Origin: a phage
Length of the DNA stretch: 64,000 bases
Strand: one strand, 5' to 3'
Sequence record: PZ179882.1
Positions within the stretch are counted from its first letter, which is position 1, and each line of letters starts with the position of its first letter. Shown one piece after another: positions 1 through 6,745 of this stretch. The notes under the pieces are model-generated. The model was not told where the DNA came from and did not search any database. It saw only the letters and a list, made by a program, of their open reading frames with translations. The position numbers and the translations under genes were made by a program.

Positions 1-1836
<1,836 letters not shown>

Positions 1837-1864
1837 TATTAAAGCATATTAAAGAGGATTAAAA

Positions 1865-3844
1865 ATGACTTTATTATCTCCGGGCATTGAGCTCAAAGAA
1901 ACTACGGTTCAAAGCACCGTGGTTAATAACTCTACTGGTACAGCAGCTTTGGCCGGTAAATTCCAGTGGGGTCCTGCTTTTCAGATCAAACAGGTTACAA
2001 ATGAAGTAGATTTAGTTAATACTTTTGGTCAACCTACAGCTGAAACTGCAGATTATTTTATGTCTGCAATGAATTTCTTACAATATGGAAATGATTTGCG
2101 AGTTGTGCGCGCTGTCGATAGAGATACCGCTAAAAACTCATCTCCGATTGCTGGTAATATTGAATACACTATTTCTACCCCAGGTAGTAACTACGCGGTT
2201 GGAGATAAAATCACAGTTAAGTATGTTTCAGAAGATGTTGAAACAGAGGGTAAAATTACCGAAGTAGATGCTGATGGAAAAATTAAGAAAATTAATATTC
2301 CTACCGCAAAAATTATCGCTAAAGCGAAAGAAGTCGGTGAATATCCAGAACTAGGTTCTAACTGGACCGCGGAAATTTCTTCGTCTTCATCTGGCTTAGC
2401 TGCAGTAATAACTCTCGGAAAAATTATTACTGATTCCGGTATTTTATTAGCTGAAATTGAAAATGCTGAAGCTGCTATGACAGCGGTTGACTTTCAAGCA
2501 AATCTCGAAAAATATGGAATTCCAGGAGTAGTAGCTCTTTATCCAGGCGAGTTGGGCGATAAAATCGAAATCGAAATCGTATCTAAAGCTGACTACGCAA
2601 AAGGTGCTTCTGCATTACTACCAATTTATCCAGGTGGCGGAACACGCGCATCTACTGCCAAAGCAGTGTTTGGATATGGACCACAAACTGATTCACAATA
2701 CGCTATTATAGTTCGTCGCAATGATGCTATTGTTCAAAGCGTTGTTCTTTCAACGAAGCGTGGTGAAAAAGATATTTACGATAGTAACATTTATATTGAT
2801 GACTTTTTCGCAAAAGGTGGTTCAGAATATATTTTCGCAACTGCACAAAACTGGCCAGAAGGCTTCTCTGGAATTTTAACTCTGTCTGGTGGATTATCGT
2901 CAAATGCTGAAGTAACAGCAGGAGATTTGATGGAAGCTTGGGACTTCTTTGCTGACCGTGAATCTGTTGACGTTCAGTTGTTTATTGCTGGTTCTTGTGC
3001 CGGTGAATCTTTAGAAACAGCATCTACTGTCCAAAAACACGTCGTTTCAATTGGGGATGCTCGCCAAGATTGCTTAGTATTGTGCTCACCGCCGCGCGAA
3101 ACTGTAGTTGGAATTCCTGTAACTCGTGCTGTTGATAACTTAGTCAATTGGAGAACTGCAACAGGTTCATACACTGATAATAACTTTAATATCAGTTCAA
3201 CCTACGCAGCAATTGATGGTAACTATAAGTATCAGTATGACAAATATAATGATGTGAATCGTTGGGTTCCATTAGCAGCTGATATTGCGGGTTTATGCGC
3301 AAGAACTGATAACGTATCTCAGACTTGGATGTCTCCAGCTGGTTATAATCGTGGCCAAATTTTGAACGTTATTAAACTTGCTATTGAAACTCGCCAGGCT
3401 CAGCGCGACCGTTTATACCAAGAAGCTATCAACCCGGTAACCGGTACAGGTGGTGATGGTTACGTATTGTATGGTGATAAAACAGCTACTTCTGTTCCTT
3501 CTCCATTTGATCGTATTAACGTTCGTCGTCTGTTTAATATGTTGAAAACGAATATCGGACGTAGTTCAAAATATCGTTTGTTCGAATTAAACAACGCGTT
3601 TACTCGTTCATCATTCCGCACAGAAACTGCCCAATACTTGCAGGGAATTAAAGCTCTCGGTGGAATTTATGAATATCGTGTAGTTTGCGATACAACAAAT
3701 AATACTCCGTCAGTAATTGATAGAAATGAGTTTGTTGCAACATTCTACATCCAACCGGCTCGTAGTATAAATTATATCCAACTTAATTTCGTCGCAACTG
3801 CTACTGGTGCAGATTTCGATGAGTTAACTGGTCTTGCAGGTTAA
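1865..3844 (+). CDS. 18: Tail sheath protein
   Basis: 659-aa ORF; N-terminus MTLLSPGIELKETTVQ matches T4 gp18 as recalled; same length as T4 gp18. Confidence 0.95.
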   Translation: MTLLSPGIELKETTVQSTVVNNSTGTAALAGKFQWGPAFQIKQVTNEVDLVNTFGQPTAETADYFMSAMNFLQYGNDLRVVRAVDRDTAKNSSPIAGNIEYTISTPGSNYAVGDKITVKYVSEDVETEGKITEVDADGKIKKINIPTAKIIAKAKEVGEYPELGSNWTAEISSSSSGLAAVITLGKIITDSGILLAEIENAEAAMTAVDFQANLEKYGIPGVVALYPGELGDKIEIEIVSKADYAKGASALLPIYPGGGTRASTAKAVFGYGPQTDSQYAIIVRRNDAIVQSVVLSTKRGEKDIYDSNIYIDDFFAKGGSEYIFATAQNWPEGFSGILTLSGGLSSNAEVTAGDLMEAWDFFADRESVDVQLFIAGSCAGESLETASTVQKHVVSIGDARQDCLVLCSPPRETVVGIPVTRAVDNLVNWRTATGSYTDNNFNISSTYAAIDGNYKYQYDKYNDVNRWVPLAADIAGLCARTDNVSQTWMSPAGYNRGQILNVIKLAIETRQAQRDRLYQEAINPVTGTGGDGYVLYGDKTATSVPSPFDRINVRRLFNMLKTNIGRSSKYRLFELNNAFTRSSFRTETAQYLQGIKALGGIYEYRVVCDTTNNTPSVIDRNEFVATFYIQPARSINYIQLNFVATATGADFDELTGLAG

Positions 3845-3931
3845 TTGATTGTGGGGCTTCGGCCCCTATTCTCGAGGAAACAAGTGATTATTTCTAAGTT
3901 TGTTACAATAAAACCAAGAAATCATTCAAAA

Positions 3932-4489
3932 ATGTGGTCGACAATTCTGGGATATAAAGTATCATATCATGATACAATATCTGTTCCAATAGAATTAATG
4001 CCAAAGAATAGTAATAAAATAGTTGACGCTAAATGTGATTTGTGTGGTATTAAATTTAGTAGAAGCATTCAGCTTTTAAATAGAACACCCACACATGCAT
4101 GTAGAAAATGTAGCATTAAACAAGTTGCTATTAAAAATTCGGAAGTTCAATCTGGAATAAGCAGACCATGGCAAAGAGGCGATAAACATCCTCGATGGAC
4201 TGGTAAAAGAAAAGAGTTTGCATTATATGCTAGTAGAGTTCATTCTATAACTAAGTCAGCTAAAATAAGAAAAATTTGGTCAAAATGGCCGAATGCTGAT
4301 AAAATAGGAGTGTGCGGTGTAGAAGGTGCTTATCAACTCGATCATAAAGTATCTATCAAATATGGATTTGATAATTTAATTCCGCCGGAAATTATAGCAA
4401 GCGTAAAAAATTTAGAAATAATCACTTGGGAATCTAACCGAGAAAAGTCAAAAAGAAATAGCGTAGATCTTTGGGATTTACTAGAATGA
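3932..4489 (+). CDS. Putative HNH-family endonuclease (freestanding, inserted between genes 18 and 19)
   Basis: ORF track gives 3845..4489 with a TTG start directly after the gene 18 stop; first ATG at 3932. CxxC...CxxC pair followed by C-terminal LDHKVSIKYGFDN...NLEIITWESN (H-N-N type motif). Start codon uncertain. Confidence 0.5.
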   Translation: MWSTILGYKVSYHDTISVPIELMPKNSNKIVDAKCDLCGIKFSRSIQLLNRTPTHACRKCSIKQVAIKNSEVQSGISRPWQRGDKHPRWTGKRKEFALYASRVHSITKSAKIRKIWSKWPNADKIGVCGVEGAYQLDHKVSIKYGFDNLIPPEIIASVKNLEIITWESNREKSKRNSVDLWDLLE

Positions 4490-4515
4490 TTCTAAAGGCC
4501 TGTTTCGGCAGGCCA

Positions 4516-4523
4516 TATAAATA
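4516..4523 (+). promoter_or_regulatory. Late promoter TATAAATA (distal copy upstream of gene 19)
   Basis: Exact TATAAATA immediately after hairpin GGCCTGTTTCGGCAGGCC. Confidence 0.45.
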
Positions 4524-4574
4524 CACTATATCCTTAATTCTTTAATTCTATATGCCCTAGGTTAAACATAGGGA

Positions 4575-4582
4575 TATAAATA
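4575..4582 (+). promoter_or_regulatory. Late promoter TATAAATA (proximal, upstream of gene 19)
   Basis: Exact TATAAATA 15 nt upstream of the gene 19 ATG; RBS GAGG follows. Confidence 0.6.
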
Positions 4583-4596
4583 CTACAGAGGCTAAT

Positions 4597-5088
4597 ATGT
4601 TTGTAGATGATGTAACACGAGCGTTTGAATCAGGTGATTTTGCGCGACCTAACTTATTCCAAGTAGAAATTTCTTATCTTGGACAAAATTTTACGTTTCA
4701 ATGTAAAGCCACTGCTTTACCAGCTGGTATTGTAGAAAAAATTCCAGTCGGATTTATGAACCGTAAAATTAACGTAGCAGGCGATCGTACATTCGATGAC
4801 TGGACTGTTACAGTAATGAACGATGAAGCTCATGATGCTCGCCAGAAGTTCGTTGATTGGCAAAGCATTGCTGCGGGGCAAGGAAACGAAATTACTGGTG
4901 GAAAACCTGCAGAGTATAAAAAGAGCGCTATCGTTCGTCAATATGCTCGTGACGCTAAGACAGTAACAAAAGAAATTGAAATTAAAGGTCTGTGGCCTAC
5001 TAACGTGGGTGAACTTCAATTGGATTGGGATTCAAACAATGAAATCCAAACATTTGAAGTAACTCTTGCTCTCGATTATTGGGAATAA
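4597..5088 (+). CDS. 19: Tail tube protein
   Basis: 163-aa ORF; sequence matches T4 gp19 as recalled. Confidence 0.95.
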   Translation: MFVDDVTRAFESGDFARPNLFQVEISYLGQNFTFQCKATALPAGIVEKIPVGFMNRKINVAGDRTFDDWTVTVMNDEAHDARQKFVDWQSIAAGQGNEITGGKPAEYKKSAIVRQYARDAKTVTKEIEIKGLWPTNVGELQLDWDSNNEIQTFEVTLALDYWE

Positions 5089-5093
5089 AATGA

Positions 5094-6745
<1,652 letters not shown>

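Follow-up and report, generated by a model that had tools for sequence, protein, structure and literature searches.

The window analysed here is the whole stretch of 64,000 nucleotides of phage DNA (sequence record PZ179882.1), in which the tail sheath gene (gene 18) and the tail tube gene (gene 19) are separated by 752 bp, compared with 116 bp in T4 (NC_000866). The gene 18 product has Gp18 domains by Pfam (E 8e-40) and the final 50 nt of gene 18 are nearly identical to those of T4; the gene 19 protein is 100% identical to T4 gp19. An extra ORF in this gap, a GGGGC-TTCG-GCCCC hairpin near its 5' end (3853-3866), and hairpins with two TATAAATA boxes downstream (at 4516 and 4575) had all been noted in an original prediction made from the letters alone, and each of these elements is present, with correct coordinates throughout. 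The features of the locus are:

1865..3844, + strand: gene 18 (tail sheath), left flank; ORF with Pfam Gp18_dom_I, Phage_sheath_1 and Phage_sheath_1C
3845..4488, + strand: inserted cassette, ~644 bp, by comparison with T4 and five insert-free IMG/VR Tequatroviruses
3853..3866, + strand: GGGGC-UUCG-GCCCC stem-loop, directly after the gene 18 stop codon
3874-3878, + strand: Shine-Dalgarno GAGGA, 5 nt ahead of GTG 3884, read from the sequence
3881..3906, + strand: 5' arm of the predicted helix (inverted repeat I1), covering the start codon and first 7 codons; paired in MFE and centroid structures
3884..4489, + strand: putative endonuclease ORF, GTG start, 201 aa, TGA stop at 4487-4489; the family alignment begins here
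4034..4111, + strand: four-cysteine (treble-clef type) zinc finger of the N-terminal domain, codons of Cys51, Cys54, Cys73 and Cys76
4340..4438, + strand: HNH core, D153-H154 (end of beta1), N176 (beta2) and N185 (helix), from invariant columns, model and fold matches
4403..4428, + strand: 3' arm of the predicted helix, codons V-K-N-L-E-I-I-T-W, inside the HNH-coding part
4433..4451, + strand: further part of the closing helix, predicted by MFE only, in which 4433-4444 would pair with 3869-3878 (Shine-Dalgarno included) and 4446-4451 with 3845-3850
4490..4596, + strand: native T4 18-19 spacer, with 100% identity to T4 and to hundreds of phages without the insert
4497-4514, + strand: downstream hairpin 1, native spacer
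4516-4523, + strand: late promoter box 1 (TATAAATA), native spacer
4555-4573, + strand: downstream hairpin 2, native spacer
4575-4582, + strand: late promoter box 2 (TATAAATA), native spacer
4588-4591, + strand: gene 19 ribosome site GAGG, in the native spacer
4597..5088, + strand: gene 19 (tail tube), right flank; ORF with Pfam Phage_T4_gp19 (E 3e-16)

The limits of the insert are set by the empty site, which reads GGTTAA-TACGGTGCA-TTCTAAAGG and has the same junctions in T4 and in five insert-free phages of IMG/VR: in the window, 644 bp stand in for the 8 nt TACGGTGC of T4, each boundary being ambiguous by 1 nt. Locus L018 is filled, and L017 and L019 are empty. In T4 the insert-free 18-19 DNA falls within 100.3-100.8 kb. 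The cassette consists of the UUCG hairpin, the ribosome site and the ORF, in that order, without a promoter of its own, and synteny comparison bears out the expectation that canonical T4 has no nuclease-type gene at the 18/19 site. The original prediction went on to explain both hairpins and both TATAAATA boxes downstream of the ORF as the scar of an insertion that had duplicated the gene 19 promoter, a reading favoured by the presence of ATATAAATAC twice, 59 nt apart. It now has practically no chance of being right, being refuted by T4, which is 100% identical over the 108 bp of 4489-4596, as are hundreds of other phages without the insert; both hairpins and both boxes are therefore native T4 spacer. 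The window as a whole contains 17 TATAAATA boxes, against 8.7 expected.

The open reading frame and the domains of its product

The frame that is open from TTG 3845 to TGA 4489 (214 codons) is no chance occurrence, because it has 47 homologs by word-indexed search and 7341 representative clusters (E<=0.001) by exhaustive profile search. ATG 3932 had been favoured as its start codon, but three lines of evidence point to GTG 3884 instead: the N-terminus of nearly all homologs is M/V-I-I-S-K, the alignment to PHROG 5104 (E 6e-82) begins at residue 14 of the 214-aa frame, and GAGGA, also present in allele B (see below), is located 5 nt upstream. On this evidence, GTG 3884 and not ATG 3932 is the predicted translation start, and the 201-aa protein is a full-length member of PHROG 5104 (function unknown).

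The stem-loop on the 5' side of the ribosome site is not an intrinsic terminator by scan, because it has no U tract. A stable hairpin of variable sequence occupies the same position in all clade A and clade B homologs inspected. Occlusion of the ribosome site by a local hairpin was considered and rejected: the UUCG hairpin ends 8 nt short of GAGGA, and locally the RNA folds no more stably than shuffled sequences do (z -0.4). Scans identified neither an intrinsic terminator nor a sigma-70 promoter for the ORF upstream, and no TATAAATA between 1829 and 4516 of the window. A transcript might also start near TATAAATT at 3760.

The original description of two CxxC pairs and a C-terminal segment of H-N-N type holds for the intact ORF, which encodes CDLC, CRKC, the segment LDHKVSIKYGFDN...NLEIITWESN and a D-H...N...N motif. 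The zinc and catalytic residues are all kept across the family; D153, H154, N176 and N185 do not vary among 39 sequences, and in a set of 145 their conservation is 90% or more. The structure model (pLDDT 88), built from an alignment without RB6, includes a beta-beta-alpha element, with strands at residues 150-154 and 177-181 and a helix at 182-188 (pLDDT 84-94), and together with the motif columns it displays the beta-beta-alpha-metal core of the HNH / His-Me finger superfamily. The top fold matches of the model are HNH enzymes, and BFVD yields a match named 'HNH endonuclease' (E 5e-6). A check against curated profiles had been proposed: Pfam, NCBIfam and PADLOC models found nothing significant in the 201-aa protein (PADLOC defence-system models gave no match at E<=0.1), and among 145 relatives there are sub-threshold matches to HNH_4 in 12 and HNH in 8, with NUMOD3 matched in 3. 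Foldseek against PDB gave no significant match, the best being the Cas9 HNH domain (E 0.25), and a profile search of PDB sequences gave a weak match to mS66/DUF4379 for the zinc-finger part only.

The C-terminal domain appears to be an HNH (His-Me finger) nuclease, divergent and of H-N-N type, that is predicted to nick or cut, and the four-cysteine zinc-finger domain at the N-terminus is predicted to recognize DNA. It is very unlikely that the protein is a zinc-finger nucleic-acid-binding regulator with a catalytically dead HNH-like motif. Although the motif terminates in Asn rather than His and the protein matches no curated HNH model, the His that serves as general base, the Asp ahead of it and the two Asn are the very residues that remain invariant or nearly so, H-N-N variants are active in Cas9 and I-HmuI, and relatives possess NUMOD3 modules, which are typical for homing endonucleases.

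Predicted pairing between the start codon and the HNH-coding region

The new element here is the predicted pairing of an arm over the start codon (3881-3906) with codons at 4403-4428. These arms form a 26-nt inverted repeat with 24 complementary positions (92%), and the resulting helix, which spans -4 to +22 of the initiation region and has its partner ~520 nt downstream, appears in the MFE structure and in the centroid structure alike (z -5.2 for the whole region). The arms covary among 15 distinct homologs: 84.7% of cells pair, compared with 33-48% in slid register, double changes occur at 6 pairs, and the covariation score was reached by 0 of 500 shuffles, a count that is not a probability because the sequences are related. 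Compensation extends to non-synonymous pairs, such as S4D with E-to-S (NLE-to-NLS) and S4T with E-to-V (NLE-to-NLV), and to the non-coding positions -4 to -1, where for instance a change from A-T to T-A goes with a synonymous change of ACT to ACA; G-U wobbles are tolerated only on the sense strand. Four other homologs have a second register, in which the Shine-Dalgarno and ATG have another partner downstream; in two of these homologs, 21 of 21 nt are paired. The MFE structure shuts the initiation region on the HNH-coding part in all 15 clade A/B mRNAs folded, but not in the two of clade C (CHI14 and Bp7), whose genes have their own TATAAATA. Since the helix is absent from distant environmental homologs, Acinetobacter phages, phiM7 and clade C, it is clade-specific; no Rfam 15 covariance model matches positions 3700-4700 at E<=1.

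The compensatory changes in the 15 distinct homologs suggest a translational lock. Complementarity of about 75-80% in register would be expected anyway from two conserved peptides and AT-rich codon use, so that the compensatory changes and the second register are the main grounds for the helix. That the long inverted repeat instead arises as a by-product of an AT-rich genome that encodes the peptides M-I-I-S-K-F and N-L-E-I-I-T-W, or is a DNA-level element, is unlikely, though of all the alternatives it deserves the most weight: synonymous resampling with the peptides fixed already gives 15-16 of 20 paired positions, and both peptides are conserved in distant homologs without the repeat. However, 265 paired positions were observed versus 221 +/- 5.5 upon resampling, and almost all sequences reach or approach the highest value of the synonymous null. 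A by-product is also hard to reconcile with the participation and covariation of the non-coding positions -4 to -1, with radical changes (E to S, E to V) exactly where Watson-Crick pairing is restored, with tolerance of G-U wobbles on one strand only, with a second register of fully paired arms (21/21 nt) of which the 5' one is mostly non-coding, and with the absence of the repeat from homologs that have their own late promoter. A wider reading of the translational lock, for and against which the chances appear evenly balanced, is that an intragenic 5'-3' RNA clamp governs the sheath-tube endonuclease genes of an entire clade in T4-like phages of enterobacteria, with selection for pairing strong enough to drive matched non-synonymous changes at the N-terminus and in the catalytic motif, and with a sister group behaving alike via another downstream site. 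The start codon (hence GTG) and the first codons would pair with codons of the HNH strand and helix.

Distribution and spread of the insert

The distribution of the insert is sporadic and multi-allelic. Of approximately 500 Tequatrovirus records, each assigned to allele A, mosaic allele B or an empty site, 70 phage records have allele A, which is that of the window (95-100% identity; PP01 and vB_EcoM_G4507 carry this cassette), 48 have allele B, and ~380 (about three quarters) have the T4-type spacer alone, a presence/absence polymorphism at one site with clean boundaries, as is characteristic of free-standing homing endonuclease genes. Alleles A and B have in common a 5' leader of ~62 nt (90%) and the 3' 225 nt (88%), whereas their middles, which code for the zinc-finger domain, are unalignable. 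Beyond this genus, the sheath-tube slot is occupied in every annotated phage record inspected, including those of Dhaka-, Karam-, Gapriver-, Gelderland- and Winklervirus, phages of Klebsiella, Acinetobacter, Aeromonas and Erwinia, and Sinorhizobium phage phiM7. Among 12 metagenome or genome contigs, the gene is in this slot in all ten with identifiable flanking genes, and 45 of 80 IMG/VR loci have sheath and tube genes on both sides; at one IMG/VR locus the gene is inverted. Copies in phages number roughly 240 in all.

The phylogeny of the gene is discordant with that of its flanks. UP19 and Bp7 have 96% identical gp18 and 100% identical gp19, but their ORFs are only 31% identical and flank opposite sides of a common 144-nt spacer. 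Clades A, B and C span genus borders, and within genera the ends of gp18 are 99-100% identical where the ORFs are only 32-56% identical. Judged from these sequences, the two patterns are those of probable independent acquisitions. No cleavage site, target or gene-conversion tract was identifiable. A cluster of substitutions near the 3' end of gene 18 (last 85-50 nt), where 33 nt contain 14 differences from T4, shows no linkage to presence of the insert, and its interpretation as target-site immunity was rejected because the insert-free L010 and L016 have the same gene 18 variant.

Strict conservation of the slot across very divergent phages could reflect old vertical inheritance with repeated loss. 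In its full form, this alternative holds that the gene is an ancestral accessory of the T4-type tail/packaging module, a domesticated nuclease that is inherited vertically, often lost, and not actively homing. In its favour are the use of one and the same slot by phages as far apart as Tequatrovirus, Sinorhizobium phiM7 and Aeromonas AS-zj, as well as at those 45 environmental loci, the tight packing against gene 19 in some phages (3 nt in CHI14), and the conservation of every catalytic and zinc residue, which implies selection on the protein. It is nevertheless quite improbable, considering that most Tequatroviruses lack the gene and have clean, identical empty sites, that alleles diverge so far where the gp18 ends match within genera, that UP19 and Bp7 have insertions at different points of one spacer, that one locus has the gene inverted, and that packaging in T4 relies on the nuclease of gp17 itself.

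Proposed mode of action and related systems

The favoured interpretation, which is probably correct, is that positions 3845-4488 are a promoter-less cassette with a free-standing homing endonuclease gene, of which the nuclease activity, homing, target and translational effect are predicted. In a mixed infection, the enzyme would nick or cut a co-infecting T4-like genome at an empty sheath-tube junction, and recombinational repair would then place a copy of the cassette in the cut genome. By settling between the gene 18 stop codon and the hairpins and late promoters of gene 19, and by bringing a replacement hairpin after gene 18, the cassette would leave the flanking essential genes undisturbed. 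Lacking its own promoter, the ORF would depend for transcription on read-through from the late promoter of gene 18, and its translation would be throttled twofold, by the GTG start and by the long-range mRNA helix on the initiation region, such that ribosomes may load only before the 3' arm has been transcribed or while another ribosome unwinds the helix.

Seven free-standing endonuclease genes of T4 are promoter-less cassettes, and several endonuclease genes are repressed by structures that occlude the ribosome site (PMC2988022). T4 mobA-mobE are likewise optional, intergenic genes for HNH-superfamily nucleases beside essential genes and sporadic in close relatives, and mobA, mobC, mobD and mobE likewise lack promoters and are read from an upstream phage promoter (PMC2988022). 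In Mob proteins, HNH is N-terminal (Pfam HNH at residues 24-50 in MobB and MobC) and the binding region C-terminal, whereas here the order is reversed, with the zinc finger N-terminal and HNH C-terminal. Membership in the T4 Mob family was rejected on account of this order and of hhalign probabilities below 1% versus MobB and MobC, and the 18/19 site is not among the fifteen sites of T4. Another rejected candidate was the terminase-associated HNH of the HK97 gp74 type, a gene that is present beside terminase without exception and that cos cleavage requires; here gene 18 separates the ORF from gp17, and most Tequatroviruses, including T4, are without it.

Burial of the initiation region in RNA structure has likewise been described for I-TevI, I-TevII, I-TevIII, segB and Aeh1 mobE, and seg43(25) likewise has a very stable hairpin directly 5' of its ribosome site, the site itself being uncovered (PMC2988022). 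In the former five genes the hairpins are local and are relieved by a late promoter that starts within the hairpin (PMC2988022). Here, in contrast, the partner is ~520 nt downstream, within the ORF itself, and there is no sign of an internal promoter. In hok-type (type I toxin) mRNAs and in MS2 and Qbeta RNA, a potentially harmful gene has its initiation region closed by long-range pairing, as would happen here through the predicted helix. The 3' arm of this helix, however, is within the ORF and not at the end of the mRNA, and neither an antisense RNA nor a 3' processing signal is evident.

Identical or nearly identical genes have already been deposited in 70 phage genomes. Depositors have named members of the family variously as hypothetical protein, HNH endonuclease, homing endonuclease or type II restriction endonuclease; some GenBank records call it gp19.1. 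Among the papers searched, none describes an 18/19 endonuclease. Well over 100 deposited phage genomes would be better annotated with a start at GTG 3884 and with the name 'HNH homing endonuclease, gp19.1 family'. Several of those phages are therapy candidates.

Although free-standing homing endonucleases have T4 as their model, this large family (the 7341 clusters) has no function in PHROGs and is missing from T4. Throughout the T4 superfamily, its full-length members are confined to a single position between two tail genes that are essential. It may be a good system in which to study how a selfish nuclease follows a conserved target while exchanging recognition domains. The covarying helix offers a testable hypothesis for low expression in a gene without its own promoter, and the clamp, if true, would add a new, long-range kind of translational control to those of homing endonucleases and would clearly illustrate how the structure of an RNA can shape the sequence of a protein.

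Layout and boundaries of the insert

The window is late-region DNA of a T4-like phage (Tequatrovirus), in which 752 bp separate genes 18 and 19, versus 116 bp in T4 (NC_000866).

Features of the region (positions 5' to 3' on the single strand given)
1-1833: gp17 (ORF)
1865-3844: gp18, tail sheath (ORF and Pfam)
3845-4489: extra open frame (ORF)
3853-3866: hairpin (UUCG)
4497-4514 and 4555-4573: hairpins
4516 and 4575: TATAAATA late-promoter boxes
4597-5088: gp19, tail tube (ORF and Pfam)
3' of gp19: gp20, 67, 68, 21, 22 and 23, in that order (ORF)

The two CxxC pairs, the LDH...N...N segment, the hairpins and both TATAAATA boxes of the original prediction were all found again where it had placed them. 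At the junction, T4 and five insert-free Tequatroviruses of IMG/VR read ...GGTTAA-TACGGTGCA-TTCTAAAGGCCTG..., whereas the window reads ...GGTTAA-TTGATTG...[644 bp]...AGAATGA-TTCTAAAGGCCTG...; the insert, or cassette, is therefore 3845-4488 (+/- 1 nt), in place of 8 nt. Window 4489-4596 is 100% identical to T4, and the two hairpins and two late-promoter boxes 3' of the insert are part of the ordinary T4 spacer. This refutes the earlier reading of an insertion scar with a duplicated gene 19 promoter, because T4 has the same sequence without the insert. The gene 19 promoters are retained despite the insert, which carries its own UUCG hairpin immediately 3' of the gene 18 stop, so that gene 18 still has a 3' stem-loop.

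From the gene 18 promoter at 1829 to the box at 4516 no further TATAAATA was found, nor any sigma-70-like site or terminator serving the cassette ORF. The cassette is promoter-less and would be expressed by read-through from gene 18; seven free-standing endonuclease genes of T4 are likewise promoter-less (PMC2988022). Farther 3', the computed gp20 ORF (550 aa from ATG 5094) takes in a TATAAATA box at 5136 (within 5094-5172); since gp20 of T4 has 524 aa, translation probably begins farther 3', at an ATG inside this ORF.

The predicted zinc-finger nuclease

The computed cassette ORF begins at TTG 3845 solely because the leader has no in-frame stop. The M/V-I-I-S/T-K N-terminus of nearly all of 47 homologues aligns with GTG 3884, the PHROG 5104 profile (E 6e-82) begins at the same residue, GAGGA (3874-3878) lies 5 nt 5' of this GTG, and the peptide encoded from 3884 to ATG 3932 is conserved at the protein level. 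On this sequence evidence the start is GTG 3884, giving a predicted protein of 201 aa, and ATG 3932, the start originally preferred, is left unsupported.

None of the curated models searched (Pfam, NCBIfam, PADLOC) names the cassette protein. Its AlphaFold model (mean pLDDT 88.3, pTM 0.49) has two well-predicted domains and a weaker linker (residues 81-110); in the C-terminal domain, a strand that ends in D-H (150-154), a strand that starts at N-L (177-181) and a helix bearing N185 (182-188) form a beta-beta-alpha element. In an alignment of 39 sequences, C51, C54, C73, G99, W105, Y115, N137, G145, Y150, Q151, D153, H154, S157, G161, N176, L177, W182, N185, R186 and K188 are invariant, and C76 is kept in at least 90%. 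Foldseek gave no significant match in the PDB (top match, the NmeCas9 HNH domain, E 0.25), and among viral models it matched 'HNH endonuclease' (5e-6), 'endonuclease-like' (1e-4) and 'homing endonuclease' (3e-3). An exhaustive profile search returned 7341 representative clusters (E<=0.001), and among the best 144 of these plus the query, HNH_4 gives sub-threshold matches in 12 and HNH in 8, DUF4379 matches 21 and NUMOD3 3, the last being a DNA-binding module typical of homing endonucleases. In its N-terminal half, the family profile also weakly matches the DUF4379-type fingers of mS66 in the PDB (E 0.005). We conclude that the cassette protein is a predicted zinc-finger domain followed by a divergent HNH nuclease of the H-N-N type. 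This order is the reverse of that in T4 Mob, where HNH (residues 24-50) precedes NUMOD modules (PMC2988022), and hhalign found no relation of the cassette protein to MobB or MobC. The nuclease domain is joined to other N-terminal modules (DUF7487, NUMOD3) in proteins P0047, P0137 and P0153 and in three of the 145 relatives, and Salmonella phage S16 has a 106-aa version consisting of the C-terminal domain only (BFVD M1HDJ8).

Distribution and acquisition of the cassette gene

The unique middle part of the window's version of the gene (allele A) is present in 70 phage-collection records at 95-100% identity; a second, mosaic version (allele B) is present in 48 further records, including RB3, RB5, RB6, RB7, Sf22 and HP3, and the T4-type spacer alone in about 380. 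Nucleotide identity between the alleles is 90% in the leader (3852-3913), 88% over the final 225 nt and about 45% in the middle, which codes for the zinc-finger domain and linker; protein identity is 55% overall. The allele B ORF (205 aa from its GTG; L002, 1500-2150, in RB6) is intact in RB5, RB6 and RB7 and unannotated in their GenBank records. The gene is already known in that it is deposited in many genomes, mostly as 'hypothetical protein' and sometimes as gp19.1, HNH endonuclease, homing endonuclease or type II restriction endonuclease; among the papers searched, none describes a sheath-tube endonuclease gene.

Beyond Tequatrovirus, 243 records gave tblastn matches to the gene. Every record inspected (UP19, Bp7, Klebsiella phi1_146043, CHI14, phiM7, AS-zj and EnA02; likewise EnC07, DCP80, STP4-a, COW86c and two Acinetobacter phages) has it between sheath and tube, the unannotated TH57 being left out of this check. 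Flanking genes could be recognised in ten metagenome or genome contigs, and all ten carry it in the same slot; in IMG/VR, sheath and tube flank it at 45 of 80 loci, and most of the 27 loci that lack both flanks match the C-terminal domain only. Such fidelity is expected of a homing endonuclease that targets the junction, which the insert disrupts, or the conserved sequence on either side of it, at the gene 18 end or the gene 19 start.

Four results favour repeated horizontal acquisition, as judged from sequence comparison: empty sites, genus-crossing clades, differing insertion points and an inverted copy. Clean empty sites occur in close relatives, and in another genus one locus is filled (L018) and two are empty (L017 and L019). 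The homologues form clade A (window, UP19, TH57, EnA02; 59-67% internal identity), clade B (RB6, QL01-like, DCP80, EnC07, Klebsiella, STP4-a; 57-76%) and clade C (Bp7, CHI14; 53%), with 45-56% identity between A and B and 30-42% between C and the rest; these clades cross genus borders, and the gp18 C-termini of same-genus pairs are 99-100% identical. UP19 and Bp7 have 96% identical gp18 and 100% identical gp19, but their cassette ORFs are just 31% identical and flank opposite sides of a common 144-nt native spacer. In IMG/VR locus L058 (3300009563_000455, 1740-4002), a family member lies between tube and sheath on the strand opposite to both. Altogether, the cassette is probably an HNH-type mobile nuclease gene, with cleavage and homing predicted.

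Several local features accompany these loci. Just 3' of the ORF, UP19 (L003, 3609-3640) has a relic gene 18 end (TTAGTATAA) followed by native spacer; the relic matches the real gene 18 end of Bp7 and looks like a footprint of the insertion route. A 3' patch of gene 18 (window 3756-3795) departs from T4 at 14 positions within 33 nt, with one amino-acid change (Q versus T); it was considered as target-linked and rejected, the same patch being present in two insert-free phages (L010 and L016). Within it, TATAAATT (3760-3767) matches the late-promoter box at 7 of 8 positions, 117 nt 5' of the endonuclease start. Bp7 (L007, 3769-4731) has a second extra ORF between gp19 and gp20, annotated 'HNH endonuclease' with only a weak Pfam match (SegE_GIY-YIG, 0.0046), and the annotation splits its gp20 in two (4408-4731 and 4737 onward), so that another mobile element, or else a frameshift, may be present at the portal gene.

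A predicted long-range mRNA helix at the start codon

Cross-strand BLAST matches between the alleles revealed an inverted repeat within the cassette.

Arms of the predicted mRNA helix
3881-3906: 5' arm, CAAGTGATTATTTCTAAGTTTGTTAC, spanning GTG and the first seven codons
4403-4428: 3' arm, GTAAAAAATTTAGAAATAATCACTTG, coding for V-K-N-L-E-I-I-T-W of the HNH motif

When 3845-4520 is folded, the arms (26 nt, 24/26 complementary, 496 nt apart) pair in the MFE structure and in the centroid alike, with a predicted extension of the helix by 3869-3878 (including the Shine-Dalgarno) with 4433-4444 and 3845-3850 with 4446-4451; the region reaches -177.9 kcal/mol versus -138.4 +/- 7.7 for shuffles (z -5.2). 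The UUCG hairpin leaves the ribosome site uncovered, and local structure there is no more stable than in shuffled sequences. The same register, or alignment of the arms, is found in RB6, UP19, Klebsiella, QL01-like phage, EnA02, TH57, DCP80, EnC07, STP4-a, COW86c, POP12, Thanatos-2 and several metagenome copies, with scores of 15-25 versus about 10 +/- 1.3 for a codon-shuffle null. The initiation region is closed on the HNH-coding part in the MFE folds of all 15 clade A and B mRNAs.

Peptide conservation could itself produce complementarity: resampling codons while both peptides are held constant already pairs 15-16 of 20 positions. The observed pairing lies at or near the top of this null (265 versus 221 +/- 5.5, summed), although these sequences are related. 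Across 18 aligned sequences, 15 of them distinct, pairing is seen in 84.7% of cells, versus 33-48% with the register slid; changes on both sides affect six pairs (13 cells), and none of 500 shuffles reached the covariation score. Among the compensatory changes, ATT/GAA becomes ATC/GAG in Klebsiella, STP4-a and Thanatos-2, with neither codon change altering the protein; in L116 and POP12, T-A replaces A-T at position -1 and ACA correspondingly replaces ACT; TCT/GAA becomes ACT/GTA (S4T with E to V) in EnC07; and ATT-TCT/GAA-ATA becomes ATA-GAT/TCT-ATA (S4D with E to S) in DCP80 and L119. G-U wobbles on the sense strand point to pairing as RNA. In four other homologues with ATG starts, the Shine-Dalgarno and ATG (-12 to +8) pair in a second register with codons for D-N-H-I-V-P-E or N-I-C-P-S (21/21 nt in L113 and L123); its 5' arm is mostly non-coding, so peptide constraints cannot account for the pairing. 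The helix is rather likely to be a selected RNA structure that controls translation, with repression predicted.

The repeat is absent from clade C members and Acinetobacter phages, whose genes have a TATAAATA box directly 5' and an ATG start, and from phiM7 and distant environmental homologues; no Rfam family matches the helix region. In the MFE fold of Acinetobacter phage AB-Navy-v2 (L110, 489-1088), 19 nt of the initiation region pair with the gene's own HNH-motif codons (D-H-I-I-P-I-Q-Y), which may be a third register, with an ungapped score no better than shuffles.

In geometry, the proposed clamp resembles the fold-back inhibition of hok-type toxin mRNAs. It may also be likened to the occlusion of the ribosome site in I-TevI, segB and Aeh1 mobE, where the hairpins are local (PMC2988022). 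The cassette differs from known endonuclease genes in its reversed domain order, in keeping to the slot between sheath and tube, and in the covarying long-range pairing proposed as a clamp. The endonuclease gene would be transcribed late, as a passenger on the gene 18 message, with its initiation region open only until the polymerase completes the 3' arm some 520 nt later; the mRNA would then clamp shut unless a ribosome transits the 3' arm. The clamp and the GTG start combined would hold each transcript to a small enzyme burst, which may suffice for cutting a co-infecting genome with an empty site and yet keep the harm limited.
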